A stretch of DNA of 64,000 bases from NCBI GenBank assembly GCA_965237675.1, contig OZ250150.1, positions 1,568,001 through 1,632,000 of the forward strand, written 5' to 3'. Under the pieces are notes generated by a model. It made no database searches, was not told where the DNA came from, and was given only the letters and a program-made list of their open reading frames with translations. How positions within the stretch are numbered: position 1 is the first letter of the stretch; the number at the start of each line of letters is the position of its first letter. This stretch comes from Candidatus Latescibacterota bacterium (GTDB lineage: Bacteria > Latescibacterota > UBA2968 > GCA-2709665). Below are positions 1,936 through 61,022 of this stretch, in pieces. The position numbers and the translations under genes were made by a program.

Positions 1936-2030
1936 AAACCTGACATCCGCGATATCGATGTCGCCAGGCCGGTATCGCTAACCCTCCCCCTCTCCTCGCA
2001 GGAGAGGGGGAGGGGGGAGAGGTTATCGAG

Positions 2031-2398
2031 ACCTACCCCCTAACCCCCTTCCTGAAGGAAGGGGGAACGGTGATCGTTCAATCTGTTGTGCTCGAGCTAG
2101 TGGCGAGATCGCGTATTCCAATCGATCAGAGCTTATATAACACAGCATTCACGAAACGTGTAGATTTACCCTCCCCCTTTCCTTTAGGAGAGGGGGCCGG
2201 GGGGAGAGGTTATCGAGACCTACCCCCTAACCCCCTTCCTGAGGGAAGGGGGAACGGTGATCGTTCAATCTGTTGTGCTCGAGCTAGTGGCGAGATCGCG
2301 TATTCCAATCGATCAGAGCTTATATAACACAGCATTCACGAAACGTGTAGATTAACCCTCCCCCTCTCCTCGCAGGAGAGGGGGCCGGGGGGAGAGGT
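2031..2398 (+). mobile_element. Two tandem (187-bp period) non-autonomous DUF559-element derivatives
   Basis: Each unit starts with left end ACCTACCCCCTAACCCCCTTCCTGAnGGAAGGGGGAA, contains TCCAATCGATCAGAGCTTATATAA (matches the 3' end of the DUF559 gene) and ends with right-end hairpin CTCCCCCTCTCCTCGCAGGAGAGGGGG...GAGAGGT. Confidence 0.75.
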
Positions 2399-2400
2399 CA

Positions 2401-2781
2401 ATGAAAAAATCCCGGCGAAATATCGTGATTGGTCAGCCTGTTGCGCTCGACAAAGTGAAGTTGGCGGGAAGTTTGCGGGCTCACATGACAGAAGAAGAAA
2501 AACAGCTCTGGCAGCACCTGCGTGCGAATCGGCTTGATGGCTTTCACTTTCGACGGCAACAAATCATCGATGGCTTTATTGTCGATTTCTACTGTCATTC
2601 GGTCGGTTTGGTAATTGAAGTCGACGGCGAGGTTCACCAGAATCAGGTGGCTTATGATGCAAAACGAGATGGTATTCTTACAGCGCGAGGATTACGAGTG
2701 ATGCGTATTTCGAATGTTGAAATCCGCACGAATTTGGGTGGCGTTCTCCAATCAATCAGAGCTTATATAAAACAGTGTTAA
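2401..2781 (+). CDS. DUF559 (Vsr-like) endonuclease domain protein
   Basis: Motifs MTEEEKQLWQHLR, FRRQQIIDGFIVDFYC, VIEVDGEVH, DAKRD; 126 aa. Confidence 0.92.
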   Translation: MKKSRRNIVIGQPVALDKVKLAGSLRAHMTEEEKQLWQHLRANRLDGFHFRRQQIIDGFIVDFYCHSVGLVIEVDGEVHQNQVAYDAKRDGILTARGLRVMRISNVEIRTNLGGVLQSIRAYIKQC

Positions 2782-3126
2782 CGCGCCGCTTAGTTCAGCT
2801 CCCCCTCTCCTCGCAGGAGAGGGGGCTGGGGGGAGAGGTCTCACAGTGTTAACGCGCCGCTTAGTTCAGCTCCCCCTCTCCTCGCAGGAGAGGGGGCTGG
2901 GGGGAGAGGTCTCACAGTGTTAACGCGCCGCTTAGTTCAACTCCCCCTCTCCTCGCAGGAGAGGGGGCTGGGGGGAGAGGTCTCATAGTGTTAACGCGCC
3001 GCTTAGTTCAACTCCCCCTCTCCTCGCAGGAGAGGGGGCTGGGGGGAGAGGTCTCACAGTGTTAACGCAACGCTTAGTTCAGCTCCCCCTCTCCTCGCAG
3101 GAGAGGGGGCTGGGGGGAAAGATCTC
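2772..3126 (+). repeat. Tandem array, 5 x 71 bp, of the DUF559-element right end
   Basis: Unit ACAGTGTTAACGCGCCGCTTAGTTCARCTCCCCCTCTCCTCGCAGGAGAGGGGGCTGGGGGGAGAGGTCTC starts at 2772, 2843, 2914, 2985, 3056. Confidence 0.95.
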
Positions 3127-3263
3127 ACCGCCGTTCGCTTTTTCCTTGATTTTTCCGGCGGTTTCGACCTATATTATTGATTAACAAATGTATTTAAAGA
3201 AAATACCCCTCCCCCGTCGGCCCAATCCCTCCTCCCCCAAACGCCGGGAAGGATGCGCACCCT

Positions 3264-3821: not shown

Positions 3822-4002
3822 TCGGGGCGCCGTTGTTCGTTTCTCGCGCATTTGTCACGCCTTTTGGTTTTGATCCCGTTTAATCGTTTTCTAATCCTGT
3901 TAATCCTGGTCGGTTTTGGGCCTTTAATCCTGCTAATCCTGGTCGGTTTTGGGGCCGTTCGGCATTGTTGTTTTTGCGTGAAGAATAAAGTACAAAAAAC
4001 AC

Positions 4003-14156: not shown

Positions 14157-14199
14157 CGAAGGCGCTGGACGGCGCCTGATGCCGGACCTCGCAGTGTTC

Positions 14200-15078
14200 A
14201 GATCACCCGAATCATACGAATCCCAGTATTCGCGCCGGATCCCGGGTCCCATCCCGGCGTACCTATCACAGTTTGGGTCTCAATCAGCCTTTAATCATTG
14301 CAATCATTGTAATCACAGTCAATCACCGTATTCGCGCCGGATCCCGGGTCCCATCCCGGCGTACCTATCACAGCTTGGGCCTCAATCAGCTCTTAATCAT
14401 TGCAATCATTGTAATCACAGTCAATCACAGTATTCGCGCCGGATCCGGGGTCCCATCCCGGCGTACCTATCACAGCTTGGGCCTCAATCAGCTCTTAATC
14501 ATTGCAATCATTGTAATCACAGTCAATCACAGTATTCGCGCCGGATCCGGGGTCCCATCCCGGCGTACCTATCACAGCTTGGGCCTCAATCAGCTCTTAA
14601 TCATTGCAATCATTGTAATCACAGTCAATCACAGTATTCGCGCCGGATCCGGGGTCCCATCCCGGCGTACCTATCACAGCTTGGGCCTCAATCAGCTCTT
14701 AATCATTGCAATCATTGTAATCACAGTCAATCACAGTATTCGCGCCGGATCCCGGGTCCCATCCCGGCGTACCTATCACAGTTTGGGCCTCAATCAGCTC
14801 TTAATCATACGAATCACAGTATTCGCGCCGGATCCCGGGCCCCATCCCGGCGTACCTATCACAGCTTGGGTCTCAATCAGCCTTTAATCACAGTCAATCA
14901 CAGTTAATCACAGTCAATCACAGTCAATCACAGTCAATCACAGTCAATCACCGTATTCGCGCCGGATCCCGGGCCCCATCCCGGCGTACCTATCACAGCT
15001 TGGGTCTCAATCAGCTCTTAATCATTGTAATCACAGTTAATCACAGTCAATCACAGTCAATCACAGTCAATCACAGTC
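14200..15078 (+). repeat. Tandem array of ~102-bp units (8 core copies) made of a GC hairpin plus an AATC-periodic tail
   Basis: Cores at 14224, 14326, 14428, 14530, 14632, 14734, 14817, 14951; tail built from AATCATTG(C/T) and AATCACAGTC modules. Confidence 0.95.
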
Positions 15079-16143: not shown

Positions 16144-16911
16144 ATGATTATTGACGTCAACGCATGGGTCGGGCACTGGCCGTTTCGGCAGTTGCGCCAC
16201 AATACGGTGCAGGGGCTGCTGAGGCTGATGGACCGCAGCGGGATCGACCGGGCGGTGGTTGCGTCGGTCCACGGCGTGTTCTACAAGAACGCCCATTCGG
16301 CCAACGAAGAACTGGCCAGGCAGGTACTGCGCCACCGTGACCGGTTGATTCCGTTCGCCACGCTGAATCCGACCTACGCGGGATGGGAAGCGGATCTGCG
16401 CCGGTGCGCCGAGGATCTGGAACTGTGCGGGATTCGCCTGTATCCGCAATATCACGGGTACGATCTGGAGTCGGACGCGGCGCTGGATCTTGTGGATGCC
16501 GCTACGGACCTGGGATGGTCCGTACAGGTGCCAATGCGGATTGTGGACCGGCGACAACGGCATGCCTGGGATCTGGCCGATGACCTGAAGCCGGCGATGT
16601 TTCGCCGGTTTTTTCATTTACGGCCGCATGCGCGCTGGATGATTCTGAACGGCGCCGGCTTTACCGGGCGCATCTTGCCCGCGGACGTCCGGTTCCTCGT
16701 GGACATCTCCCGCCTGACCGCGGTGTTGGAGCGCAGCATTCAGGGTCTCGCGCAGGCGTGGGGTGCCGAGCGCCTGGCCTTCGGTTCGGGGATGCCCTTC
16801 AACGCGCCCGCGCCCGCGTTGCTGAAATTGCAGATCCTGGACGCGCCCGAAACGGTAAAAGAAGCCATCGCCTGGCGAAACGCCGAAGCCATGCTGCGGT
16901 CCGGGCATTAA
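16144..16911 (+). CDS. Amidohydrolase-family (Amidohydro_2-like) metal-dependent hydrolase
   Basis: IIDVNAWVGHWPF, GIRLYPQYHGY, RLAFGSGMP. Confidence 0.75.
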   Translation: MIIDVNAWVGHWPFRQLRHNTVQGLLRLMDRSGIDRAVVASVHGVFYKNAHSANEELARQVLRHRDRLIPFATLNPTYAGWEADLRRCAEDLELCGIRLYPQYHGYDLESDAALDLVDAATDLGWSVQVPMRIVDRRQRHAWDLADDLKPAMFRRFFHLRPHARWMILNGAGFTGRILPADVRFLVDISRLTAVLERSIQGLAQAWGAERLAFGSGMPFNAPAPALLKLQILDAPETVKEAIAWRNAEAMLRSGH

Positions 16912-17062
16912 TCAGCCTTTAATCAGGTCTTAATCACAGTGAATCACAGTGAATTACAGTCTCTCCTTGGGTTTAATCAGCCTTTAATCAGGTCTTAATC
17001 ACAGTAATCACAGTAATCACAGTAATCACAGTAAATCACAGTAAATCACAGTAAATCACAGT
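16909..17062. repeat. AATC-periodic repeat tract filling a convergent intergenic gap
   Basis: TAATCAGCCTTTAATCAGGTCTTAATCACAGT twice, followed by AATCACAGT runs; overlaps both stop codons. Confidence 0.85.
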
Positions 17063-19692
17063 CGCAGTCCGAATGCCCTCGCGAAAATCAAAAAGTCGCC
17101 AAACCCGATGGTTCCGTCCCCGTCCAGGTCGAACCTGGGATCAAAATCTTCATCGGTTGTAGTCCTGCCGAACGCCTCCGCCAACGCGATGAAGTCCGCG
17201 AACCCGACGCTTCCATCAGAGTTGAAGTCGGGAGACGGCGGCGCCTCGATGGAAATAGGCTCGAATCTTCTGAAGCCCAGGGAACGACTGCCATTTCCCC
17301 ACAACCAGATCTCAAGCGCATAATCGTCGCCAATTCGCTGTTCCGGTGGGAATGAAAGCACGGTATTGAAACGTCCATTCACGACAGGCGCGTAGAATTC
17401 CCTGATGCTCGAGAAGGATCCCGGTGGCGATTCCTGATCGCTCCCGTCCCAACTCGACGCGAAGAAACGGAATTCGATTTGAGATACCGAACGATCGAGG
17501 ACCGTGCCGGCAACCCCGATCCCCTGGCCAATTCGATACGCAACCGGCATTGGCGAATCGAGTGTGATTTGGCGGAAGAAGTCAACGGGGAGCAATGCGG
17601 TCCCTTCCCCTCTCCTTACGACAAAGGGCCCAAAACCATCTTGCGGAGAAGAATATGCTGTGTTTCCTCGATACCGGTTTATCGCGAAATCGTACACGCC
17701 CGCTTTTCTGTGCGCAAAGAATATCGTCGTTGCGAATTGACCGTCTATCACAGGCGCTTCGAAGAATATGTACTCGTTGATATCGTCGTGCCAAAACCCG
17801 AGTGAAAGAAGCGTAATCGAAGGATCGGATACGGTGCCGGAAAGCCGAAGCGCCTGCCCCGTCTCGACTGCAACAGGAATCGGTGAGGAGAAGAGGATAT
17901 CGGTAAAATAGCCAACGGGAATCGGTGACGTCTCCGGACCTTCCTGTATTGTAAAGGCATTGAAAGTGCCGGCCGGAGAGAAGTCTTGTTGGTCTTCCCG
18001 TCTCGTTTCGGCCTGGAGCCTGTAGTCGCCGGCCTGTTCGTGTGAGAAGAAGAAGGTATGCCTGAATTTTCCGTCTCGAACCGGGACACGGTAAGCGTTT
18101 TCTACGCCATAATCGGTTCGCAGGAGAGAAAACCGGACTTCGGATACCAGAGGATCGGATACGGCGCCGGAAATGCGAATCGGTTTGTAGGACATGAAAG
18201 GGCCGGAAACGGGAGTGTCTAGCGTTATATTCGTGAAAAAATCGGTCGGAATCGAGATGCGGGTTCTGTCGCCCGGCGGAATCGGGATGAGTACCGCCCG
18301 GAATAAACCCTCGGCGTCGGTCTGAATCCATATCGTGCGGTTCGTTTCGTACGACAGGCGCACGAAGGCGCCGGAAAGGGGTTGGACGCTTCCGATTGCA
18401 GGCGAGGTCTCGGGCGAGACGAGAAATTCCTCCGGATGGGGGAAGGTGCGTGCGCCGCTGGTGGTGTCTGCCAGAAACGGAGTGGTGTAGTCGAGCGTGG
18501 CGTTGAGGCCCAAGCCGCTCAGGAACAGCCGGGACAGGTGCCGTTCGTAAATGTCCGTAATGCGGTCGCCCGCTGCATTCTTGACATTGGAGATACCAAC
18601 CCTGTTCGTCTGCGTCAGACGCGAGAGAATTTCCGTGCCATAGTCTTCAATGAGGCTTCGAACGAACAGATAGCCAGCGCCACGGACGCCCGGGTTCTCG
18701 ACCGACCCGCGCAACGGCGTACGGTGCGGGTTGGTGAGGAAGCGTTCGATATTCTGTCGATTGTGCGCTTCGTGTCCGCCGACCAGGTCCTCACAGACGT
18801 GCGACAGTCCTTCGTTGAGCCAGTTTTCTTCCGGCCTTCCGTTGCGAATGAGCACGTGCTGGTAGAAGCTGAAGAGATGTTGAAATTCATGGGCAAGCAC
18901 GGCATCGGTGACGTCGGGATCGTTGAATGGATTGATAAAGAGCAGGTTGATCTGGTCGCCGTTGCCGCCCTGGTTCTCAGGCAGGACCGACGCGGCGTTG
19001 AAGAATCCGCGTACCGTGGTGGTATCGTCACCGACTTCGTCAACCAGGTGGGTGTAGAGCAGGTAAACCCTCCCAATGTCCCCCGCACCCGGATCGCGTA
19101 CGAGCGCGGACGTGACAACGGGATGGATCTTTAGGCTGAATAGGTCGACATCCGCCTGGATCCGCGTCCTGCTGACGCGGCCGGTGTCGGACACGTCCAC
19201 GTAGGCGGTCGCCCGGTGGCCGCCCGCGAGGAGCACCGCCGTAACGGTCGTATCGGCCACGTTACCGAATGCCGGAAACACGAACCGGCGGGCGCCGACC
19301 AGATGCGGCGCGACTTTCGTCGCCGAGGGGCGGTATCCGCCGGTTTGTCGTACGCGGCGGGCGAGCTCCTGCTCCTGTCTTCGAAGCTGCGCTTCCAGAC
19401 CGCCGCCCGCAGGTGTGGCCGTGCCGACGCCGGAATTGTGAACCGTCACAGCATTGGCGCCGGTGGATACACTGAAAACCGAGAAGTCGTACTCAGGATT
19501 GTTTTCGAGATCGGGGGGACCATCCGTATTCAGGGAATAGAGGACCAACATGTAGTCCCGGTCGGAAAACTCGAGGGTCAGCGGGGACGATGTCCCGAGG
19601 AGCTTGACCGGGTAGGGTTCGCCGATTCTCTGCGCGAAAACCGGCTGAAAGCAGGTCAACAACAGGAGGAAGGAGTACGCTCGATATCTCAT
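17056..19692 (-). CDS. Secreted zinc metallopeptidase-like protein with three internal repeats and a C-terminal dockerin-like domain
   Basis: Signal peptide; LAHEFQH...WLNEGLSH; repeats IPTDFFTNITLD / IPVGYFTDILFS / LPVDFFRQITLD; DFNSDGSVGFADF...DLDGDGTIGFGDF. Confidence 0.8.
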   Translation of the reverse strand: MRYRAYSFLLLLTCFQPVFAQRIGEPYPVKLLGTSSPLTLEFSDRDYMLVLYSLNTDGPPDLENNPEYDFSVFSVSTGANAVTVHNSGVGTATPAGGGLEAQLRRQEQELARRVRQTGGYRPSATKVAPHLVGARRFVFPAFGNVADTTVTAVLLAGGHRATAYVDVSDTGRVSRTRIQADVDLFSLKIHPVVTSALVRDPGAGDIGRVYLLYTHLVDEVGDDTTTVRGFFNAASVLPENQGGNGDQINLLFINPFNDPDVTDAVLAHEFQHLFSFYQHVLIRNGRPEENWLNEGLSHVCEDLVGGHEAHNRQNIERFLTNPHRTPLRGSVENPGVRGAGYLFVRSLIEDYGTEILSRLTQTNRVGISNVKNAAGDRITDIYERHLSRLFLSGLGLNATLDYTTPFLADTTSGARTFPHPEEFLVSPETSPAIGSVQPLSGAFVRLSYETNRTIWIQTDAEGLFRAVLIPIPPGDRTRISIPTDFFTNITLDTPVSGPFMSYKPIRISGAVSDPLVSEVRFSLLRTDYGVENAYRVPVRDGKFRHTFFFSHEQAGDYRLQAETRREDQQDFSPAGTFNAFTIQEGPETSPIPVGYFTDILFSSPIPVAVETGQALRLSGTVSDPSITLLSLGFWHDDINEYIFFEAPVIDGQFATTIFFAHRKAGVYDFAINRYRGNTAYSSPQDGFGPFVVRRGEGTALLPVDFFRQITLDSPMPVAYRIGQGIGVAGTVLDRSVSQIEFRFFASSWDGSDQESPPGSFSSIREFYAPVVNGRFNTVLSFPPEQRIGDDYALEIWLWGNGSRSLGFRRFEPISIEAPPSPDFNSDGSVGFADFIALAEAFGRTTTDEDFDPRFDLDGDGTIGFGDFLIFARAFGLRL

Positions 19693-20028
19693 TCGGTACC
19701 GCCGGGCGGCTATAGTTTCTCCAAGGGTTTTAATCAGCTCTTAATCACAGTCAATCATGGTGTAATCACAGTCCGGTATTGTCAAGCCTTTTTATCGAAC
19801 TTCAACAGGGAATGTTCTGCAGGAAGGCAAACACGTGCGGAAAGCGGGTAGGGAATCCCGGCGGAGAGGCGCTACGGTGGGGTCGATCCGAGATGTACAA
19901 CGAGCGGCTTTTTGGACGATGAGTTGATGACGGAGATGCAAATGTCGAGGAGCAGTCCATCCTAAAGTCTATTCATGAGATATTGTCACGGATAGCGGTA
20001 TCAGGAAGCAGAAACAGCTTCCGAGTGA

Positions 20029-20352
20029 ATCGAGAAAGTGAAGTCGGTGCGAGGTTTTCGGGCTGGCATGTTAGAAGAAGAACGACAGCTCTGGCGAGAC
20101 CTGCGGGACCTACCCCCCCCCTTCCTGAGAGGAAGGGGGAACCGTGATCGGTTAATGAACGGTTGGATTGGCTGAAGACGTTTCCATTGTTGAAAAAATC
20201 CCGGCGAAATATTGTAATAGGTCAGCGTGTTGCGATCGAGAAAGTGACGAGATGACATTCTCCGATCAATCAGAGCGTAAAAAAACAGTATTTACGCAAC
20301 GCTTGGTTCAACTCCCCCTCTCCTCGCAGGAGAGGGGGCCGGGGGGAGAGGT
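20029..20352 (+). mobile_element. DUF559 gene fragment followed by an internally deleted DUF559 element (20108-20352)
   Basis: Fragment IEKVKSVRGFRAGMLEEERQLWRDLR; then left end, KKSRRNIVIGQRVAIEKV coding remnant, gene 3' remnant and right-end hairpin. Confidence 0.8.
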
Positions 20353-20358
20353 CCTCAC

Positions 20359-20505
20359 TAAAGACTCGCGAAAAGGATTCTGTGATGATTATCTTGAGCC
20401 TCCACGCCAGGTTGCTCCAGGTTCATTGTTATAAGGTTAATTAAGTAAGCCAGAATTCAATGACTTGAGCAAGGAGACTTCCTTTTGTGTGAATTAATGA
20501 GGCTA
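20359..20505. repeat. ~147-bp dispersed repeat, second copy at 60879-61025
   Basis: Both copies share AAAGACTYGCGAAWAGGATYCTGTGATGA, CTCCAGGTTCATTGTTATA and terminal GAATTAWTSAGGCTA. Confidence 0.7.
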
Positions 20506-20852
20506 AAGTCTATTCATGAGATATTGTCACGGCAATCGTGCCAATCATACAATCACAGGCAATCCCCCCAGAGTTTATCAACGGGTTTCAATCAGGTTTT
20601 AATCACATTAATCATAGTCAATCACAGTATGGAATGAGATTTGCATGAGTATTGTATGTGAAAGCCCTGACGCGGGTCGGCGGATGTCGAGGGTCCGGCA
20701 ACAGCGACGCAAAGGATCGACAGGATGACGAATAGAACCGCTCAAATGCTGACCTTCTCGTTCGTCCACTCGTTCGAACCCACATAATCCCTCGGCCTCT
20801 ACTTTCGATCCATTTGATCGCAGCAATGACCGTCGGCCCGTGATTTGCTTGA

Positions 20853-21299
20853 ATGTTGGACGTGATAAACAATGAACACAAACATTCCGTGCTCACAGGG
20901 AGGATCATCGGATGCGCGATGACGGTACATACCGCGCTGGGCAACGGCTTCCAGGAGTTCATTTATCAGAATGCGTTGAAGATAGAAATGGAGGATTATG
21001 GTATTTGCTACAGTTGTGAGCATGAAATGCCCATTTATTTCAAAGGAAAACAGATAGGTATCAGAAGAGCCGATTTCCTGGTGGAACACGTCGTCTGTGT
21101 TGAATTGAAGGCAGTGATCGAGTTGCAGGACGTCCATCTGGCACAGGCCATCAACTACCTTGAGGCGTCCGATCTGGAGGTCGGTCTGCTCATCAACTTC
21201 GGCGCAAAAAGCCTCGAATTCAAAAGAGTAACGAACAAAACGTTCAAACAACGAACCCAGGGCAACCCCACAATCCCACCATCCCGCAAATCACGTTAA
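20853..21299 (+). CDS. GxxExxY protein (PD-(D/E)xK nuclease superfamily)
   Basis: VHTALGNGFQEFIYQNAL, RADFLVEHVVCVELKA, QAINYL, GLLINFG. Start may be GTG 20862. Confidence 0.93.
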   Translation: MLDVINNEHKHSVLTGRIIGCAMTVHTALGNGFQEFIYQNALKIEMEDYGICYSCEHEMPIYFKGKQIGIRRADFLVEHVVCVELKAVIELQDVHLAQAINYLEASDLEVGLLINFGAKSLEFKRVTNKTFKQRTQGNPTIPPSRKSR

Positions 21300-21399
21300 T
21301 TACAGCAATCCTCCAAAGTCTTTCCATGGGTTTCAATCAGGTTTTAATCGCAGTTAATCATAGTCCATCACAGTAATCATAGTTAATCATAGTTAGTGG

Positions 21400-21428
21400 T
21401 TGACATTCCAAAAACACCGGGCTATACT
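21400..21428 (+). promoter_or_regulatory. Near-consensus sigma70 promoter
   Basis: TTGACA-17 bp-TATACT. Confidence 0.75.
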
Positions 21429-21434
21429 TATGTG

Positions 21435-21518
21435 ACGTATCGACTCTGGTTGATAAATTCTCTTGATTGGAGTGCTTCATAAAGGCTGTCGCCGTTGGCC
21501 GAGGGCGGCGGCCTTTTC
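21435..21518 (+). ncRNA. Candidate small RNA (~85 nt) or terminated leader
   Basis: Lies between the promoter and a 13-bp hairpin (21481-21516, two G-U pairs on the + strand) followed by Ts. Confidence 0.45.
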
Positions 21519-21537
21519 GATAACATCACACCCTAGC

Positions 21538-21846
21538 AATCCCAGTCCTTATTTGCCTTTATCACAGTTAATCAGGATTTAATCCCAGTCCATCCCAGTC
21601 CTTATTTGCCTTTATCACAGTTAATCAGGTTTCAATCCCAGTCCATCCCAGTCCTTATTTGCCTTTATCACAGTTAATCAGGATTTAATCCCAGTCCATC
21701 CCAGTCCTTATTTGCCTTTATCACAGTTAATCAGGTTTCAATCCCAGTCCGTTTTTGCCTTTATCATGGTCAATCATAGTTAATCCCAGTCCAGCTCTTG
21801 TTTTAATCATAGTTAATCATTAGTAATCATAGTTGTAATCATAGTC
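21538..21846 (+). repeat. Tandem array, 4 x 53 bp plus degenerate AATC-periodic tail
   Basis: CCTTATTTGCCTTTATCACAGTTAATCAGG at 21547, 21600, 21653, 21706; GGATTT and GGTTTC variants alternate. Confidence 0.92.
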
Positions 21847-21855
21847 GGGGGAGCC

Positions 21856-22887: not shown

Positions 22888-24615
22888 ATGGAGGTGGGCG
22901 CCATTAACCAACCGAACGACGCAAATCGCCAGCGAAAGTCGCCGGATGACTTTCTGCAGGACTACGTGGATATGCAGCACACGTTCCGGTCGCTGTCCAT
23001 TATCGATCAGATATTGATGTCCATGGACGAAAAGGACAAACGCCGGCCCCAGCTCTACGACCTCCGTCGACAGCTTCAGGAGGACGAGATTACGTTCGAA
23101 GAGGCGCGGCGGACCATCGTGGAGATGGAGGCCGCGCTCGAGAAGGTGACGGCGCCGGCCAACCGGGTGGGCACGCTCCTGGAGCCGCCCCGCGACGGGG
23201 TGGCGTATATCAGCGTGGGCGGGTCGGAATATTTCGCCAATGTCGATTCCAGGCTGGACCGGCAGACGTTGAAGGTGGGCACGCGGGTGCTGGTAAACGA
23301 CGCGTTCGCTATCGTGGGCGAACTGGGATATACGTTGTCCGGCCAGGTGGCGAAGATTTCAGACGTGCTCGAAGACAGCCGGTTGCGGGTCGGCCAGGAA
23401 CCTGGCGGGCAGGTCACGGTGCTCTCCCGGTCGAGCGACCTCATCGAGGCGTCGCTGAAGGCGGGCGACGAGGTTCGCGTGGATCCGAATTTCCGCGTGG
23501 CGCTGGAACGGATGCCCAAAAAAGACGCGAAAGACTATTACCTGGAAGAGATTCCACATCTGCCGTGGGAGAAAATCGGCGGCCAGGACGAGGCCATCCA
23601 GGCCATAAAAGATACGATCGAGATGCCGGCGTTGCACCCGGTCCTGTTTTCCAGGTTCCAGTACAGCGTTCCCAAGGGGTTCCTGTTGTACGGGCCGCCG
23701 GGCTGCGGCAAGACGCTGATCGGCAAGGCAACCGCTTACAACCTCGTCAAGCAGGCCCGCCAGGAGGCCGGACTTAAGTTGAAAGAATGTTTCATGAATA
23801 TTAAAGGTCCGGAAATCCTGAATATGTGGCTGGGCGAGTCCGAACGCCAGGTTCGAGAGATTTTTTCCCGGGCGCGGGAGAAGCGGAAAGAGGGCTGTCT
23901 GCCGGTGGTATTCATCGACGAGGCGGAGTCGGTTCTCGGCACGCGCCGGGCGATGCGATCGCACAGCATTTCAAATACCGTTGTGCCGATGTTCTGCTCG
24001 GAGATGGACGGCATCGAGTCGCTGCAGGACGTGGTGATCATACTGGCGTCCAACCGGCCCGACCTGATCGACCCCGCCATTTTGAGGCCGGGAAGAATCG
24101 ACCGGAAAATAAAGGTGAAACGTCCCGACAGGGAGGGCGCGCACGAGATCCTCAAGATCTATCTGACACCCGATCTTCCAATTAACCGGAAAGCGTTGGA
24201 AGAGCACGGGGGTGACGCGTCGGAGGCCGTGGAGGCGTTCGTCGCGCGCACGGTGGAAGAGATTTTCTCTCGCAAGGACCATACGCGGTTTCTCGAAGTG
24301 ACCCTGCGAAGCGGCCGGAAGGATATTCTCCGCCGGGGGGATCTGGCCAGCGGGGCAATCATGGAATCCATTGTGCGGCGGGCAAAGGAAATGGCCATCC
24401 GGCGCTCGATCGCGTCTGGAGAGGAAGAGGGCATTTCCCAGGACGATCTGCTTCAGGCCGTCGAGGCCGAGTATACGGAGAATGAGATTTTCCCGTCGAC
24501 GGATCACACGGAAGACTGGCTGAAGTTGCTGGACTACGATCCCGAAAACGTCGTGCGGGCGTCGCCGATTCGCCCCGGGCGGGAGACGAACCGGCGCGTG
24601 AATCGGAGCGTGTAG
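22888..24615 (+). CDS. arc: Proteasome-associated AAA ATPase (ARC/Mpa family)
   Basis: N-terminal coiled coil and OB-like region, GPPGCGKT, IKGPEILNMWLGESERQVR, VFIDEAES, RPGRIDRKI; context. Exact start uncertain. Confidence 0.9.
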   Translation: MEVGAINQPNDANRQRKSPDDFLQDYVDMQHTFRSLSIIDQILMSMDEKDKRRPQLYDLRRQLQEDEITFEEARRTIVEMEAALEKVTAPANRVGTLLEPPRDGVAYISVGGSEYFANVDSRLDRQTLKVGTRVLVNDAFAIVGELGYTLSGQVAKISDVLEDSRLRVGQEPGGQVTVLSRSSDLIEASLKAGDEVRVDPNFRVALERMPKKDAKDYYLEEIPHLPWEKIGGQDEAIQAIKDTIEMPALHPVLFSRFQYSVPKGFLLYGPPGCGKTLIGKATAYNLVKQARQEAGLKLKECFMNIKGPEILNMWLGESERQVREIFSRAREKRKEGCLPVVFIDEAESVLGTRRAMRSHSISNTVVPMFCSEMDGIESLQDVVIILASNRPDLIDPAILRPGRIDRKIKVKRPDREGAHEILKIYLTPDLPINRKALEEHGGDASEAVEAFVARTVEEIFSRKDHTRFLEVTLRSGRKDILRRGDLASGAIMESIVRRAKEMAIRRSIASGEEEGISQDDLLQAVEAEYTENEIFPSTDHTEDWLKLLDYDPENVVRASPIRPGRETNRRVNRSV

Positions 24616-24649
24616 TGTTCCGGAGTCAGCGGTCAGCTAAGAGCCGGGC

Positions 24650-24824
24650 TTCTCCCCCCGGCCCCAAGTCCCTCACCCCCCAACCCCCTCTCCCACAGGG
24701 AGAGGGGGAGCAGAACCAGGGGTTGACCTATCACGTTATCTCGTCCAGGTTTTTTCATCAATCGAACTGTCTTCAACCGAAGACAGTTCCCCCTTCCTCT
24801 CAGGAAGGGGGTTAGGGGGTAGGT
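24650..24824 (-). mobile_element. Internally deleted DUF559 element
   Basis: Reverse complement reads left end, ATGAAAAAACCTGGACGAGATAACGTGATAGGTCAA (DUF559 5' remnant), then right-end hairpin. Confidence 0.75.
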
Positions 24825-24984
24825 CTCGTCCTCACGCCCGCCTGGAGGTGGTGATGGGGGTTGTTCGCGGCAAGAATCGCGCCGCTCACCATCAACCTCG
24901 AACGCCAGAACCAGGCGTCCCCTGTTGTTCCGAAAAATCGCCGGAACAACAGTTCACGCGCTGCGCGGGTGGAGGTTGGTTTTC

Positions 24985-25249
24985 CACGCTTAAACGTCCA
25001 GCATCATTACTATACGTTACCACGTATAGATTTGATTTTGACTGGCGGCAAGACCGCAAACACGTTCAAAACTCCTTCGCGGTATACCTCATGGCCGTCC
25101 GGTGGCGGAGTGGGGGCTTTTCCGCGTTATTCCATCCACCACCTGTGCTTGGTGGTCGCAATGAAGCCCGCAGGGCACAGCCTCCGGTTTCGGCCTCCGA
25201 GGGAGTTCGCGGAAAAGCAGCCCCGCGGCGTCTGAGCGGCGCCCTTCTT
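24985..25249 (-). repeat. Structured dispersed element, variant 4
   Basis: Scaffold GGGGCTGCTTTTCCGCGAA...CGCGGAAAAGCCCC with central TGCCCT (AGGGCA at 25172-25177); extension similar to 37315-37420. Confidence 0.75.
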
Positions 25250-25548
25250 TCAAAGGCGGTGAGACGGGAGACGGGTAGAAGGGAGAGGACCACACCGCAC
25301 ACCGCCGGGCTCGCGCTCCACTAAGCAATTCTCTTCTATTTGAATATTGCGAGAATCCGATTGCGGACGTCTCACCTGTCAAAGTTATCACCACCTCTTC
25401 CGTCTTCCCTCTACCCTCTCACGGCTTTTTGGCGATGCAAGAAAAAGGGCAAGGGAATAGGGGACGTTTGGGGGTGAGGGAGATTCCATCTCACGGGTGC
25501 CGAAACGCGCATTTCTTTCGCCATAGGATCGGAGATTGAGCGGGGTTC

Positions 25549-27069
25549 ATGAATCGACTTTTCGGTCTGGAGACGGAGTACGGAATCACGATTGACGGGG
25601 TGGACAGCATCGACGTCGTGGAAGAGTCGATGCAGCTGATCCGTTGCTATCTCCAGGGTAAATTTACGCCCCTGTGGGACTATCAGCTGGAAAACCCCCG
25701 CAAAGACGTGCGGGGGTTTGAAGTGAAATCCCTGCTGAACGATACGGACGAGAAGGTGCACCTCCAGAAGGATCGGAAGCGCAAGGTGCCCCTCGAGGAA
25801 TTGAAGAGCGACCTGATTATTCGCAACGGCGCCCGCTTTTACAACGACCACACCCATCCGGAATATTCCACGGGCGAATGCCTGAGCCTCTTCGAACTGG
25901 TCGCGCAGGACCGCGCGGGCGAGCGGATCGTGGACATCTGCGCCCGCAGGCGCACGGAGATGCTGCCCGAGGGCGTCGTGCGGATCTACAAGAACAACAC
26001 CGATTTCGAAGGCCATAGCTACGGGTGTCACGAGAACTACCTGATGGACCGTGTGACGCCGTTCGAACGAATCGTGAAGGGCCTGCTGCCCTTTCTGGTC
26101 ACGCGGCAGATATACGCGGGCGCGGGAAAGATGGGCGTGGAACGCGGCGACAGGGCGTCCATCTATCAACTCTCGCAGCGGTCCGAGTTCTTCGAGGTGA
26201 TCGCCAGCGTCGACACCATGCACAAGCGGCCGCTGATCAACACCCGGGACGAGCCCCACGCCGACGCGAGCCGCTACCGCAGGCTGCACGTGATTCTCGG
26301 CGACGCGAATATGTCGGAATATGTCACGGCGCTGAAAGTGGGCGCCACGGCCATGGTGGTGGCGCTGGTTGAACAGGATGATCTGCCCGAATGGGTCTTG
26401 AAGGATCCGGTTGCCGCCCTGAAGGACGTGTCGCGCGATCAGAGTTACCAGTGGCTGGTGGAACTGGATCGCAAGGGCGACCGGCTGGTTCCGTCCGTCG
26501 ACGTCCAGCGGATGTACCTGGCGCTGGCGCAAAAGCGGTTCGGCGGCAGCGACGTGGAAACGGACTGGGTCCTGAACGCCTGGGAGGAGATTCTGAACGG
26601 CCTCGAACGGGATCCCATGGCAATGGTGGGCACCTGCGACTGGGTGAGCAAGAAGTGGCTGCTGGATTGTTTCCGCGAGGCGGAGGGTCTTTCGTGGGAC
26701 AACCCGGACGACCTGGCATGGCTTCAGAGCCAGGATCTGGAGTACCACAACGTGGACCGGGAGTCCGGACTCTATTATCTGCTGGAAGACCAGGGCAAAA
26801 TGGTCCGCCTCCTCGACGACGAGCAGATCGTGGAAGCGATGTCTGTTCCGCCTACGGACACGCGGGCCTATTTCCGCGGACGATGCCTGGAGAAATTCGG
26901 CCACGACGTCAAATCGGTCAACTGGGACCGCATTGTCTTCTCCCGAAATGGGAAACAGCGTTCCGTGGATATGAAGGATCTGGTTGATGTGGAGAAGGTC
27001 GCGTATTATAATAAGGCACTGGATCGCTCGGATGAACTGGAGGAGTTCCTGGACGCGCTGGGGGTCTGA
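25549..27069 (+). CDS. dop: Depupylase/deamidase Dop (PafA2 family)
   Basis: FGLETEYGI, NGARFYNDHTHPEYST, GHSYGCHENYL, NTRDEPHAD, RRLHVILGDANMSE. Confidence 0.85.
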   Translation: MNRLFGLETEYGITIDGVDSIDVVEESMQLIRCYLQGKFTPLWDYQLENPRKDVRGFEVKSLLNDTDEKVHLQKDRKRKVPLEELKSDLIIRNGARFYNDHTHPEYSTGECLSLFELVAQDRAGERIVDICARRRTEMLPEGVVRIYKNNTDFEGHSYGCHENYLMDRVTPFERIVKGLLPFLVTRQIYAGAGKMGVERGDRASIYQLSQRSEFFEVIASVDTMHKRPLINTRDEPHADASRYRRLHVILGDANMSEYVTALKVGATAMVVALVEQDDLPEWVLKDPVAALKDVSRDQSYQWLVELDRKGDRLVPSVDVQRMYLALAQKRFGGSDVETDWVLNAWEEILNGLERDPMAMVGTCDWVSKKWLLDCFREAEGLSWDNPDDLAWLQSQDLEYHNVDRESGLYYLLEDQGKMVRLLDDEQIVEAMSVPPTDTRAYFRGRCLEKFGHDVKSVNWDRIVFSRNGKQRSVDMKDLVDVEKVAYYNKALDRSDELEEFLDALGV

Positions 27070-27168
27070 CCGCCGGTCGCGTCGGCGAAGCGTGGAAGCC
27101 TTACCCGTTTGAAAGCGGATCCGGGGAATCCGCCGGCGTTTTTGAACGGAATGGAGGAGGATGTGACC

Positions 27169-27360
27169 ATGAGGAAAGATTTGGCCAGTCTGGAACGGCG
27201 AACCCGCCGGTCGGCGCCCCCGGAAGGGGGTCCGAACGAGGGGGACGACGGACCGTCAAGACCGGACGTAGACCGTCCCGATACCCGTGACCTGCTGCGT
27301 CGCATGCGCCGCGTGGACCCCAATCAGGCGCGACGCTACCGGCAGCGCACGGGTGAGTGA
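27169..27360 (+). CDS. ubact: Ubiquitin-like protein UBact (Pup analogue), 63 aa
   Basis: RBS GGAGGAGG; disordered composition; C-terminus LLRRMRRVDPNQARRYRQRTGE matches the UBact R[ST]G[EQ] signature; lies between dop and prcB. Confidence 0.9.
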   Translation: MRKDLASLERRTRRSAPPEGGPNEGDDGPSRPDVDRPDTRDLLRRMRRVDPNQARRYRQRTGE

Positions 27361-28183
27361 GCCTATGGGTCCTGGTGGGGATTTTCTGGATCTGCTGAAG
27401 GCCGAAGGATACCGGCTGCCCGGCGCCGACCTGCAGAAAAGCGCATCGGGCGGCCCGGCGTCCCTTCCGTTTCAGCCCACCGAAGGCACAACCATCCTCG
27501 CGCTGCGCTACCGGGATGGCGTTCTTATCGCGGGCGACCGCCGGGCCACCGCCGGCCATACCGTGCTTTACGACCGCGCCGACAAGGTCATCGATATCGA
27601 CGCCCATTCGGTGATGGCCATTTCGGGGTCGCCGGCGATGGCATACGAGATCGCCCGGATTCTGGAACACACGTTTCAATATCACCGGCGGCGGCAGTTG
27701 CAGGAGATGAGCCTCGCGGCGAAACTCCGGCGCCTATCGCTTCTGATTCGCGACAATTTGCCCATGGCCATGCAGGGCATCGGTCCGGTGATTCCCATTT
27801 TCGCCACGTTCGATCGACGGGACAACCGCGGCAAGATCTTTTTTTACGACGTGCTGGGCGCGCAGTTCGAGAGCGGGGACTTCGCCACCACGGGTTCGGG
27901 CGCGGCGGCCATCCGGGGTGCGATGTATTACAACAACCAGTGGGGCGAGCGTCCCTTTGCCGAACTGGACCGGAGCGAGATCCTCGGAATGGTGCTGCGC
28001 CTGCTGCACACGGCGGCGGAATACGACGCCGCCACCGGACGGTACGAGCGGCATTCCGGCGTGTTGCCCACGGTGAAGACGATCTCCGCCGATGGACTGC
28101 TTACCGTGCCCGAGGACGACCTGCGGGCGTCTTACGAGCGGTACATTGCCCAATCCATAGGACAGGGAGACGCCGACGGATGA
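27353..28183 (+). CDS. prcB: 20S proteasome beta subunit
   Basis: Propeptide then TEG/TTILAL catalytic Thr, IAGDRRATAG, TGSG. Start GTG 27353 or ATG 27365. Confidence 0.92.
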   Translation: MSEPMGPGGDFLDLLKAEGYRLPGADLQKSASGGPASLPFQPTEGTTILALRYRDGVLIAGDRRATAGHTVLYDRADKVIDIDAHSVMAISGSPAMAYEIARILEHTFQYHRRRQLQEMSLAAKLRRLSLLIRDNLPMAMQGIGPVIPIFATFDRRDNRGKIFFYDVLGAQFESGDFATTGSGAAAIRGAMYYNNQWGERPFAELDRSEILGMVLRLLHTAAEYDAATGRYERHSGVLPTVKTISADGLLTVPEDDLRASYERYIAQSIGQGDADG

Positions 28184-28959
28184 TGCTGGACGAACCCTAT
28201 CGATGGGCGGATGCGGTAGCCAACCGGCGGGAATACATCGAAGACCAACTTCGGGGCGGCAGTCCGGTTGTGGGCCTGGGCTACAGGGACGGCGCGTTAT
28301 TGCTGACGCTTGGACAGGGACAGCAGAAAATCTTCGAGGTGTACGACCGCATCGGCATGGCCGCGCTCGGACACCCAACCGATATCGAGAAGTTGCGCCA
28401 GGCCGCCGTCGACCTGGCTTCGGTAATTGGCTTCAACTATTCGGAGCAGGACGTCAACCTGCAGCAGATCGTGCATTTCGGTCTTGGCCCCGCGGTCAAG
28501 ACGGCTTTCGACGAGGTGTTCCGGGCGCCGTATCTTGTGCGGGTGTTGATGCTGGAACTGGATGGCGCGGAAGAGGGCGCCGTCTTCTATACCGTGGAAT
28601 ACGATGGCGCGTTTCAGAAATACGATGGCCGCGGCGTTGTGGGCGAAATGCCGGAAGCGGACACGTTGATGCGGACCTATCTGCCGGATACGGCCCGGCT
28701 CAGCCTGCGAAACGCACTGAAGGCCGCGCTGGAGGCGTGGGCGGCCGGACGTTTTGCGGGAGACCTGGATGAGGTCCCCCGGGACGTGTCGGAGTTGGAA
28801 CGGGCGGCCCGAGAGGCCGATCTGGAAGGCATTTTAAAGGCTGCATTGGAAACGTCCACGGTTGAGGCCGTGGTTTTCGAACGATCCGGGCCGGACAAAC
28901 GCAGGTATCGCGTTGTGACCCGGAAAGAGATCCAGCCCGTCGTCAAGCCGTATCGCTGA
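28180..28959 (+). CDS. prcA: 20S proteasome alpha subunit
   Basis: ATGA overlap with prcB; RREYIEDQLRGGSPVV, QKIFEVYDRI. Confidence 0.88.
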   Translation: MMLDEPYRWADAVANRREYIEDQLRGGSPVVGLGYRDGALLLTLGQGQQKIFEVYDRIGMAALGHPTDIEKLRQAAVDLASVIGFNYSEQDVNLQQIVHFGLGPAVKTAFDEVFRAPYLVRVLMLELDGAEEGAVFYTVEYDGAFQKYDGRGVVGEMPEADTLMRTYLPDTARLSLRNALKAALEAWAAGRFAGDLDEVPRDVSELERAAREADLEGILKAALETSTVEAVVFERSGPDKRRYRVVTRKEIQPVVKPYR

Positions 28960-29110
28960 GACCCCCCGGAACCCGCTGATTTTACCATCCCCGGGGGCGC
29001 CGGAAACGGTTCTCGGGCCGGTCGAATTGTGGAATCGTCGTGCGCCGCTCCGGGCGGGTGCGGACAGGCGGATGCGGATCATCCAAGAGATGGACATGTA
29101 AGGGCCCGCG

Positions 29111-30577
29111 ATGGAACGACGAATTTTCGGTCTGGAAACCGAGTACGGGTGCATGGCGCCGGAGCACGAGGGCCTCGTGAGCCCGGATGCCATTACGGTT
29201 AAGGTGAAGGACCATATTTTCCACACCGAGCGTAAGGGGATTGTCGATATCCATTATCGGGGCAGGGACGAACCGCCGGGTAACGGCGGTTTTTTGTTTA
29301 ATTCCGGCAGGGTCTATATCGATATGGGTCATATCGAATACACGACCCCGGAGTGCAAGAGCCTGTTCGACCTGGTGGCCTTTGACCGGGCGGGAGAACG
29401 CATTCTGCAACGTGCGCTCCGTTCGCTGGGGCTGGCGAAGGAAGCTTCGTTCCTGAAGAACAACATCGACCACTATACGGGGGCTACCTTCGGCTGCCAC
29501 GAAAATTATCTGATCCGCCGAAACGTGCCGTTCTCGATGGTCGTGATCCCGGCATTGCTGCCCTTTCTTGTAACCCGACAGATCTTCAGCGGCGCCGGCA
29601 GGGTGGGCAGCTACGACGACAGCTTCTATTATTATGGCCGGGAAGACGCGGACGATGCCTCCCATGACGATCCCGTCGCCTTTCAGATTTCGCAGCGCGC
29701 CGACCACATTGTCACGGAGATCTATCAATGGATCCAGTTTTCACGTGCGATTATCAATACGCGGGACGAGCCGCTGGCCGACTATAACAAATACCGCCGG
29801 TTGCACCTGCTGATGGGCGATTCGAATATGTCGGAATACGCCACCGCGTTGAAGGTCGGTACCACGGCGATGGTGTTGAATTTGCTCGAGCATAAGATTT
29901 TTCCGCAGGACGTGGGCCTGGGCGACCCGGTGTTGGCGTTGAAGGAGATTTCCCGGGATCCTACGCACCGATGGATTCTGGACCGCAAGAATGGCCGACC
30001 GGTTACCGCGGTCGACATTCAGCGGCGGTACCTGGATCTGGCGAAACGCCATCTGCGGGGTATGGACGAGGAGTCGGACTGGGTGCTGGCCGAGTGGGAG
30101 CAGACGCTGGATGCGCTGGAGCGGGATCCCATGAGCTTGAAGGACCGGCTGGACTGGGTGGCCAAGAAGTGGATGCTGGAGATGTTCGTACAATCGGAAG
30201 GCGTGGACTGGAACGATCCGTGGCTTCAGAGCCTGGATCTGGAGTTTCACAATATCGATCCCAATCGGGGGGTTTTCCTCGACCTTGAGCACAAGGGCAT
30301 GACGCGTCGCATTCTGACGGAGAAGCAGATCGCGCGCGCGGACGACGAACCGCCCGCCGATACGCGAGCCCGGGGCCGGTCCGACGTGATCAGGGCCCTC
30401 TCGGAGAACCGGGTGCGGTATATCGTGGACTGGGATTCGGTGTATCTGGAGAACGAGAGCCAGCTGAGTCTTCAGGATCCGTTCGAGACCTACACGGACG
30501 CGGCGGCCAGGTTCATCCAGGAGATACGTTCGGCCTCACCCTCGCCACGACGCCCCATGCGGCGACGGTTGAAGTGA
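29111..30577 (+). CDS. pafA: Pup/UBact-protein ligase
   Basis: RRIFGLETEYG, FLFNSGRVYIDMGHIEYTTPEC, TFGCHENYL, ISQRADH, SRAIINTRDEP. Confidence 0.85.
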   Translation: MERRIFGLETEYGCMAPEHEGLVSPDAITVKVKDHIFHTERKGIVDIHYRGRDEPPGNGGFLFNSGRVYIDMGHIEYTTPECKSLFDLVAFDRAGERILQRALRSLGLAKEASFLKNNIDHYTGATFGCHENYLIRRNVPFSMVVIPALLPFLVTRQIFSGAGRVGSYDDSFYYYGREDADDASHDDPVAFQISQRADHIVTEIYQWIQFSRAIINTRDEPLADYNKYRRLHLLMGDSNMSEYATALKVGTTAMVLNLLEHKIFPQDVGLGDPVLALKEISRDPTHRWILDRKNGRPVTAVDIQRRYLDLAKRHLRGMDEESDWVLAEWEQTLDALERDPMSLKDRLDWVAKKWMLEMFVQSEGVDWNDPWLQSLDLEFHNIDPNRGVFLDLEHKGMTRRILTEKQIARADDEPPADTRARGRSDVIRALSENRVRYIVDWDSVYLENESQLSLQDPFETYTDAAARFIQEIRSASPSPRRPMRRRLK

Positions 30578-47739: not shown

Positions 47740-47795
47740 GTGTTCTGTCACTGAAATAGATTGCCGAATGGTGACATATTTCTGGGACAGAACAC
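47740..47795. repeat. 56-57-bp palindromic mini-element, copy 1
   Basis: GTGTTCTGTCACTGAAATA...TATTTCTGGGACAGAACAC; second copy at 50622-50678. Confidence 0.8.
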
Positions 47796-47818
47796 CAGTT
47801 ATCGGCAAAGGAGAAATC

Positions 47819-60611: not shown

Positions 60612-60633
60612 ACTGGACTCCTTACCGGATGGG

Positions 60634-60844
60634 ACCTACCCCCTACCCCCCTTCCTGAGAGGAAGGGGGAACTGCGATCGGTTGACGAACGGCCAGATTG
60701 GCTGAGGACATCTCGAATGATGAAAAAACCCAGGCGAAATATTGTGATGGGTCAGCTCAATCAGAGCACATATAAAACAACGTTGATTCAACGCCTGGTT
60801 CAACTCCCCCTTTCCTTGCAGGAGAGGGGGCCGGGGGGAGAGGT
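60634..60844 (+). mobile_element. Internally deleted DUF559 element inside the mgtE operon
   Basis: Left end, MMKKPRRNIVMGQ remnant joined to TCAATCAGAGCACATATAAAACA (gene 3' end), right-end hairpin. Confidence 0.8.
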
Positions 60845-61022
60845 CCTCCCTTATGATCAATCCCTTCACTTTTTACCGAAAAGACTTGCGAATAGGATCC
60901 TGTGATGAATTTCTTGATCCCCCACGGTAGTTTCCTCCAGGTTCATTGTTATACGGTTATTTGCGTAACCATTATACAGTGACTCTGAGTAACGAAACGA
61001 CCTTTTTTGCGAATTATTCAGG

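Follow-up and report, generated by a model that had tools for sequence, protein, structure and literature searches.

A GxxExxY nuclease gene bracketed by AATC-periodic repeats: a candidate repeat-bounded insertion cassette in a Latescibacterota chromosome

Several systems are known in which a small gene for a DNA-processing enzyme or its derivatives are linked to characteristic repeats or insertion habits. RAYTs (REP-associated tyrosine transposases) are HUH/Y1 enzymes, and the REPs (repetitive extragenic palindromes) that accompany them are short palindromes; free-standing homing endonucleases include PD-(D/E)xK types such as I-Ssp6803I, and to our knowledge arrays of short repeats do not usually flank their genes; MITEs (miniature inverted-repeat transposable elements) are gene-less transposon derivatives, whose terminal inverted repeats are built of repeated subterminal motifs. 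Here we describe a locus to be set beside these, found in a 64,000-nucleotide (nt) stretch of a Candidatus Latescibacterota genome (GenBank contig OZ250150.1, positions 1,568,001 to 1,632,000, forward strand; hereinafter the window, with positions counted from its first letter), where a gene of the GxxExxY family lies between direct repeats with an AATC periodicity. GxxExxY proteins are very common (13,414 clusters at 50% identity), with a function so far unassigned; the passages of the literature that name the family give its function as unknown or mention it in passing (PMC8934634, PMC3424549). Literature searches on GxxExxY, PDDEXK_3 and the repeat strings found no description of repeats around these genes. 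With slightly better than even confidence, we interpret the locus as one copy of a widespread insertion cassette, namely a nuclease gene with its ends in clade-specific arrays of 9–10-nt units.

The gene (20862..21299, plus strand) codes for a predicted nuclease of 145 amino acids (aa) counted from a GTG codon at 20862. The full open reading frame (ORF; 20853..21299, plus strand, 148 aa) offers an alternative ATG at 20853; the GTG is the likely true start because GTGATAAAC at this position aligns with the ATGATTAAG starts of two relatives from Bacteroidota, one in Mariniphaga (locus L009) and one in a member of Chitinophagaceae (L005). The protein matches the profiles TIGR04256 (GxxExxY; E 4.2e-38, 130.3 bits, cut-off 35) and PF13366 (PDDEXK_3; E 1.8e-35, 122.3 bits, cut-off 22), and displays the motifs G29-x-x-E32-x-x-Y35, D71, E81-x-K83 and Q95-x-x-x-Y99. 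Across 68 diverse sequences, G29, E32, D71 and K83 are conserved in at least 90% and Y35 is invariant; all near-invariant columns of this alignment are kept in the window protein, indicating that the gene is intact. A structure model built from the same 68 sequences (pLDDT 92, pTM 0.82), which replaced an earlier one from 38 close homologues with a pLDDT of only 57, has its secondary elements in the order H-H-E-E-E-H-E-E and contains the alpha-beta-beta-beta-alpha-beta succession of the restriction-endonuclease-like fold. Its neighbors in the PDB, as recovered with Foldseek, are all PD-(D/E)xK nucleases, the nearest being Cas4 SSO0001 (4ic1, the top match, E 7.8e-4), lambda exonuclease, LHK-Exo, RecE and MGME1, with E-values from that figure upward and a TM-score of ~0.49. 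This match of a predicted structure, although weak, suggests a nuclease that processes DNA ends and not one that cuts at specific sites. A sequence search of solved structures with the window protein gave no match, no family of the PADLOC and PHROG libraries matched it, and 50,697 phage records contained a homologue in one archaeal virus only.

On both sides, the gene is bracketed by direct copies of a ~97-nt unit, the full extent of which follows from a MAFFT alignment in which eight repeat units of the window align to a single module; in this alignment the shared unit spans about 20533–20629 and 21269–21395. Pairwise, 20565–20607 agrees with 21310–21352 at 84% over 43 nt, and the 27 nt at 20602–20628 agree with 21348–21374 at 74% and with 21367–21393 at 89%. 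The left unit (20533..20629, plus strand; GC 0.392) opens with four degenerate AATC steps, continues with GCAATCCCCCC..GGGTTTCAATCAGGTTTTAATCA and closes with AATCATAGTC and AATCACAGT. Between it and the gene lies a unique spacer of 232 nt (20630..20861), which has no structure signal (fold z-score +0.73) and no second copy in the window by blastn. The right unit (21269..21395, plus strand) begins within the last 31 nt of the ORF, where the protein tail ..TIPPSRKSR is encoded; a 10-nt array (21344–21395) closes it. The GC content of the gene is 0.477, against 0.589 for the window. The placement of a GxxExxY gene within direct repeats, as reported in a preliminary description of this DNA, is thus borne out by both the profile matches and the repeat alignment.

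To see whether GxxExxY genes are linked to repeats more generally, we compared 11 loci: the window, L005, L009 and eight others obtained by tblastn of a plasmid collection, mostly from large chromid-like records. Repeats are present at both gene ends in all 11, including each of the eight plasmid or chromid loci; they are direct in three, inverted in six and of both kinds in two. Inverted repeats flank the genes of Bacteroides (L027; 30 nt at 90%, consisting of three 9-nt units, CACAGAGGA), Bernardetia (L029; 28 nt, 86%), Sphingomonas (L031; 25 nt, 92%) and, weakly, Treponema (L025; 16 nt, 88%), and complex direct and inverted arrays are seen in Prevotella (L030). Gemmatirosa (L028) has perfect 35-nt hairpins on both sides of a frameshifted gene; in this record (G. 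kalamazoonensis, 1486–1862), the translation contains stops and the tblastn match falls into two pieces, the hairpins consist of three CGCAGAGGA units, and three places match the GxxExxY protein. Direct repeats are found in a Fusobacteria plasmid (L026; 52 nt, 83%) and in the closest plasmid relative (58.8% identity), that of Persicobacter (L024; 40-nt AATCC-periodic units). Upstream of the intact Persicobacter gene lies a decayed cassette, in which an array is joined to a gene fragment ('IGLLINF'); this implies that tandem cassettes can give rise to direct flanks. The same record also codes for a 143-aa ORF on the minus strand without a detected family (590–1310), which lies between two direct copies of an array of GATT periodicity plus a piece of the GxxExxY 3' region. 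Since the two-sided arrays of the relatives are usually inverted, they amount to terminal inverted repeats there, and the one-strand direct layout is a minority form (3 of 11). The contention that such elements have a helical-turn period rather than palindromic ends accordingly fails as a general rule, the relatives having mostly 9-nt units in inverted arrays.

The gene-repeat link also stands out in a flank control, in which we scored the best ungapped match between the 150-nt flanks of each gene (threshold of at least 13) and took 180 other ORFs of the same sequences as the background. Seven of the 11 GxxExxY genes reached the threshold, as against five of the 180 background ORFs, supporting the generality of the link. 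The window gene itself scores low, its left unit being more than 150 nt away. Among the five high-scoring background ORFs are the gene of a DUF559 protein (2401–2781) and the ORF at 17056–19692, which is itself flanked by AATC arrays; the Persicobacter ORF at 590–1310 ranks second in the background set with a score of 28.5, and a UPF0182 gene (47768–50605), the flanks of which share a match scoring 25, ranks third. A count of the commonest 6-mer in the same flanks was uninformative, as both the short arms and the window's long spacer escape it.

The repeat motif appears to follow the protein clade, although with ten usable sequences this is suggestive only. The four genes flanked by AATCA or AATCC units are 56–65% identical among themselves and 26–50% identical to the others; AATC-flanked genes form a clade (support 90/91), and together with two AATCCGTG-flanked genes a larger one (support 91/89), while the two CACAGAG-flanked genes are mutual best matches (55%). 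A second tie between gene and repeat emerges from the ends of the coding region. Among the 120 best homologues of the window protein, which are 68–90% identical to it, 93 of the 116 with the N-terminus present start with M-I-x, a start written in the DNA of L009 and L005 as ATGATTAAR, which is the reverse of TTAATCAT. At the other end, 117 of the 120 share a Q[GSR][NHP]P tail (..NQGNPxI), and G134, N135 and P136 show no variation among 38 aligned sequences. Going by the protein sequences, this tail can be encoded as AATCAGGGNAATCCN..ATC, with AATC every 9 nt, and the tails of seven homologues, which continue with N-H/Q-S-S-D-K/N, could be encoded as AATCAYAGTTCAGACAA. Because the repeat matches the conserved start and tail codons, the outermost codons would be common to protein and array.

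Comparisons of filled and empty sites show that the gene and its repeats come and go as one piece, in each case in clades other than that of the window gene and across species. In Sphingomonas parapaucimobilis, fabD and fabG are separated by the gene and its inverted arms, whereas in S. paeninsulae and several other alphaproteobacterial records these two genes are adjacent and the ~430-nt unit is absent. Likewise, Bacteroides finegoldii has the gene with its repeats between radA and an FAD-dependent gene, where Parabacteroides distasonis has a clean 13-nt spacer. This gap has the look of a hot spot for insertions; in Phocaeicola massiliensis (L033, about 650–1800) it holds a different ORF of ~1.1 kb without such repeats. 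Homologues of named origin that are 73–81% identical to the window protein come from Gemmatimonadota, several families of Bacteroidota and the cyanobacterium Geminocystis. Given such close homologues in these phyla and a host resembling Latescibacteria, horizontal spread is the probable cause of this distribution.

Within the window, the repeat family recurs without the gene and on one strand only, just as previously reported. AATCAYAGT has 41 matches, as against 0.39 expected (0 of 100 shuffles reached 41), all of which are on the plus strand between 14311 and 21845, in five consecutive intergenic gaps from 14.2 to 21.9 kb; GGGTYTYAATCAG, with at most one mismatch, has 11, likewise all on the plus strand (0.26 expected), and no run of the reverse motif GATT is present anywhere in the window. 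Between 14150 and 21900, 66 of the 75 short AATC-to-AATC gaps measure 9–11 nt (18, 28 and 20 gaps). Tandem Repeats Finder recovered arrays at 14219–14808 (102 nt × 5.8, 97%), 14886–14951, 15029–15078, 16996–17062, 21344–21395, 21539–21750 (53 nt × 4, 96%) and 21803–21845. The largest gene-less array (14200..15078, plus strand) accordingly comprises 5.8 units of 102 nt with 97% matches, each a GC-rich hairpin-like segment joined to the module, followed by AATCACAGTC runs that continue as far as the ribosome-binding site of the next gene, whose start is at 15092. The array at 16908..17062 (plus strand) fills the entire gap between two convergent genes and overlaps both of their stop codons (16909–16911 and 17056–17058); a solo unit (GGGTTTTAATCAGCTCTTAATCACAGTCAATCATGGTGTAATCACAGT) lies at 19725..19772 (plus strand); and a variant array at 21538..21846 (plus strand) has four 53-nt units (ATCCCAGTCC..TTATCACAGTTAATCAGGATTYAATCCCAGTCC) and then AATCATAGT runs, which stop 10 nt ahead of an ATG at 21856. 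A tract at about 3880–3950 had also been counted as related; it is indeed related (3862..3950, plus strand) but consists of a distinct AATCC-periodic 30-nt unit, present twice (TTAATCCTGNTAATCCTGGTCGGTTTTGGG). The strand of the arrays is independent of that of neighboring genes, the gene at 17056–19692 being on the minus strand with arrays on the plus strand on both sides. Over the first 60 kb the GC skew remains positive, except that it dips slightly at 14–16 kb and comes close to zero at 20–22 kb; the plus strand may be the leading strand. The 96–97% similarity of units within arrays points to recent amplification.

More conventional identities for these arrays were considered and set aside. 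The ORF spanning the largest array (14179–14907) has a GC3 of 0.48, as opposed to about 0.75 in real genes, which argues against a coding repeat; the entire 102-nt and 53-nt periods repeat at 96–97% without unique spacers, unlike a CRISPR array; and a replication origin with DnaA boxes is not indicated, as there is neither a sustained switch of GC skew nor a dnaA or dnaN gene among the scanned ORFs. Searches for known RNA families and tRNAs in the arrays found none at the gathering score, the two matches recovered being at chance level (E about 0.7).

When 185,579 species genomes were scanned for three consecutive AATCAYAGT units, 23 loci were retrieved; they are spread over many phyla, and none is from the genome of the window itself. 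Two of these, L009 and L005, contain a GxxExxY gene 62% identical to that of the window, which directly touches AATCATAGT-unit arrays on both sides, the two sides being mutually inverted. Complex multi-variant arrays resembling those of the window were found at four loci of Arsenicibacter, one of Binatia and a few more, some of which, including Arsenicibacter, are inverted arrays about a short gene-less center. The presence of ATGATTAAG at the center of the gene-less Arsenicibacter arrays was examined as a possible relic of a gene start and dismissed, the string being merely the reverse of the repeat unit. AGTCCAGAC was present in one of the 34 fetched loci. The contig ends at or just beside the arrays in two of the 23 loci (L005 and L009); this would fit assemblies that break at arrays, in which case such loci would be under-counted in metagenome bins. 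Two further loci on a single Metamycoplasmataceae contig (L020 and L021) have arrays of 9-nt period (AATCATAAT and AATCATAGT) with runs of up to 33 units inside stop-free frames of up to 1661 codons; these probably represent a different phenomenon, such as a coding repeat or an assembly feature.

Taken together, these observations are consistent with a cassette made up of a gene for a minimal Cas4/RecB-like PD-(D/E)xK nuclease and of arrays, here of AATCAYAGT(N) units. Gene and arrays would move together between genomes, presumably by horizontal transfer, and settle in intergenic gaps, after which the arrays could amplify and spread locally by recombination. The gene-less arrays of the window (14.2–15.1, 16.9–17.1, 19.7 and 21.5–21.8 kb) would then most likely be derivatives of the cassette, formed either when an array was left behind after loss of the gene or by local amplification and copying through recombination; for instance, exchange between the two direct units around the window gene would remove the gene, and what remained would be a solo unit similar to that at 19725–19772. 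As for the nuclease, it might break or resect DNA at the arrays, so that annealing or gene conversion could move, copy or delete the cassette and alter the length of the arrays. That it acts in this manner is a guess on our part, and a rather doubtful one. A broader proposal is that GxxExxY genes are the autonomous members of a new class of mobile elements, with register-flexible ends of clade-specific 9–10-nt arrays on which the nuclease acts, and that the gene-less arrays dispersed in the intergenic DNA of several phyla are their non-autonomous or relic copies, a PD-(D/E)xK counterpart of REP/RAYT; we advance it tentatively, as something that could well be the case but on balance probably is not. 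The earlier suggestion of a selfish nuclease-plus-repeat system thus stands in part: the two empty sites from other clades, the 68–90% identity across phyla and the deviant composition of the stretch that holds the locus (GC 0.465 versus 0.589) speak for it, whereas binding or cutting of the repeats by the nuclease has no support in our results.

A number of observations weigh against the cassette interpretation. The window has a single gene for at least six array clusters, no GxxExxY remnants were found near its other arrays, and, all of its arrays being direct and on one strand, there is no terminal inverted repeat here. Among the 23 loci of the scan, 21 have no GxxExxY gene within 5 kb, about ten are plain repeats of three to four 9-nt units, and three lie in long open frames; the plain loci may be unrelated, and generic tandem repeats could account for some such matches by chance. 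The longer module AATCAG-NNN-TTAATC was found in none of the 34 fetched loci. The Treponema repeat is near chance level, yet it was counted among the 11. The empty-site comparison, although gene and repeats are absent together at both sites, draws on other clades and on different species and does not define the exact ends; at the two filled/empty junctions, compared between different species, no target-site duplication is visible. No transposase or integrase was seen in the cassette, PF13366 being the only family found there. Finally, the nearest folds of the predicted structure are of the exonuclease type, and the match is weak (TM 0.49).

As a first alternative, the arrays could form an independent, minisatellite-like intergenic family of tandem repeats that arose and spread by slippage and recombination in the host, with the GxxExxY gene as a passenger that lands or survives by chance in such AT-rich repeats. 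Under such a scenario, gene-less arrays would be expected to outnumber genes, as they do both in the window (six clusters to one gene) and in the scan (21 of 23 loci); units within an array would be as alike as they are (96–97%), slippage or unequal exchange producing just this; and the lineage-specific nature of the longer module would pose no difficulty. It sits poorly, however, with the presence of one unit beside one protein clade in three distant lineages and of other units beside other clades, with the extension of the repeat into the conserved codons at both ends of the gene, and with the joint absence of gene and repeats in the two empty-site comparisons, and we hold it to be unlikely. 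Still less probable, in our estimation, is that the arrays act in the transcript, where the arms would pair around the ORF as a stem in multiple registers and be processed, for example by RNase III, such that insertion into an operon does little harm, in a manner resembling the ORF-bearing intervening sequences of 23S rRNA. That six of the 11 loci have inverted arms immediately adjoining the gene would serve this well, all the more as arms of tandem units should be able to pair in several registers, and cassettes do lie inside same-strand, operon-like rows (fabD-X-fabG and radA-X-FAD gene). The direct repeats of the window, L024 and L026, though, cannot pair, the window has no GATT run, and the gene-less one-strand arrays would be left unexplained. 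A stem in the transcript is compatible with the cassette model for the inverted form and inapplicable to the direct form of the window.

Alternatively, the arrays could be binding sites of a host DNA-binding protein, or promoter spacers of variable length that tune the neighboring genes, in which case the nuclease gene would be unrelated to them. Some regulator and partition sites typically consist of tandem ~10-nt units, and the arrays do come up to the genes at 15092 and 21856 as close as the ribosome-binding site or the start. Against this, the AATCAYAGT unit occurs in distant phyla beside unrelated housekeeping genes (pfk, rpe, ilvD and nth), an array also fills the gap between convergent genes, where no promoter is needed, and the promoter matches within the arrays are weak (9/12) and on the minus strand, while a better one (10/12; 20524–20553, plus strand) shares no more than the beginning of the left unit. 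A host-site function of this kind strikes us as very improbable. The insertion cassette therefore remains the interpretation that we prefer.

The surroundings of the locus place it on a chromosome: the window contains a Pup-proteasome gene row and genes for secreted proteins with T9SS tails, and its PafA is 83% identical to those of Candidatus Latescibacteria bins. The Pup-proteasome row (22888–30577) codes for an AAA ATPase with proteasomal OB domains, two members of the Pup-ligase family and a proteasome subunit. The low GC content of 0.465 applies to the stretch 19700–21855, and the arrays themselves range from 0.35 to 0.39. Immediately beside the left AATC unit lies a decayed DUF559-type element (19962–20532), bounded by a perfect 30-nt direct repeat (19962–19991 and 20503–20532), whose fragments match the 5' part of the DUF559 gene (2402–2522) and its GGGGAGAGG-type palindromic repeats; other copies of this type are found at about 1979–3128, with the intact gene at 2401–2781, and at 60631–61026 (70% over 436 nt). 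On the other side, the segment between the right unit and the 53-nt array (21400–21522) has a near-consensus sigma-70-like promoter (TTGACA, 17 nt, TATACT; 11/12), followed after ~60 nt by a strong terminator-like hairpin, where an 89-nt stretch folds more stably than any of 200 shuffles (z -2.8). This segment has no Rfam match and may represent a small RNA gene.

If GxxExxY genes serve as the active component of a cassette bounded by repeats, this would explain why they are found alone between housekeeping genes and near-identical across phyla; it would also provide an origin for a class of puzzling periodic intergenic repeats, and, after REP/RAYT, a second case in which a nuclease gene has a genomic repeat family of its own. 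REP/RAYT is the closest analogue in logic, as there too a small nuclease-type gene is flanked by a repeat family that is also dispersed without the gene, and the repeat goes with the gene clade. It differs in that the window gene is of the PD-(D/E)xK type and in that its repeats are tandem arrays of 9–10-nt units, direct or inverted, rather than palindromes. What GxxExxY genes share with homing endonuclease genes is a small nuclease gene that behaves as an insertion between host genes, as at the two sites in other clades, and a patchy spread across phyla; by contrast, the nearest folds of the window protein are Cas4 and lambda exonuclease, and site-specific cutting finds no support here. The resemblance to transposons and MITEs lies in the gene between inverted arms at 6 of 11 loci and in the gene-less inverted arrays of Arsenicibacter; unlike these, the window flanks are direct, and neither a transposase family nor a target-site duplication was detected. 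At the level of the protein, the Cas4, RecB and lambda-exonuclease domains belong to the same fold class and have the E...D...ExK...QxxxY residue pattern in common with GxxExxY proteins, with Q95-x-x-x-Y99 presumably corresponding to the motif of the Cas4/lambda-exonuclease group; in contrast to those domains, GxxExxY proteins are much smaller (about 125–145 aa), match them at a TM-score of only 0.49 and have no CRISPR or recombination-gene context.

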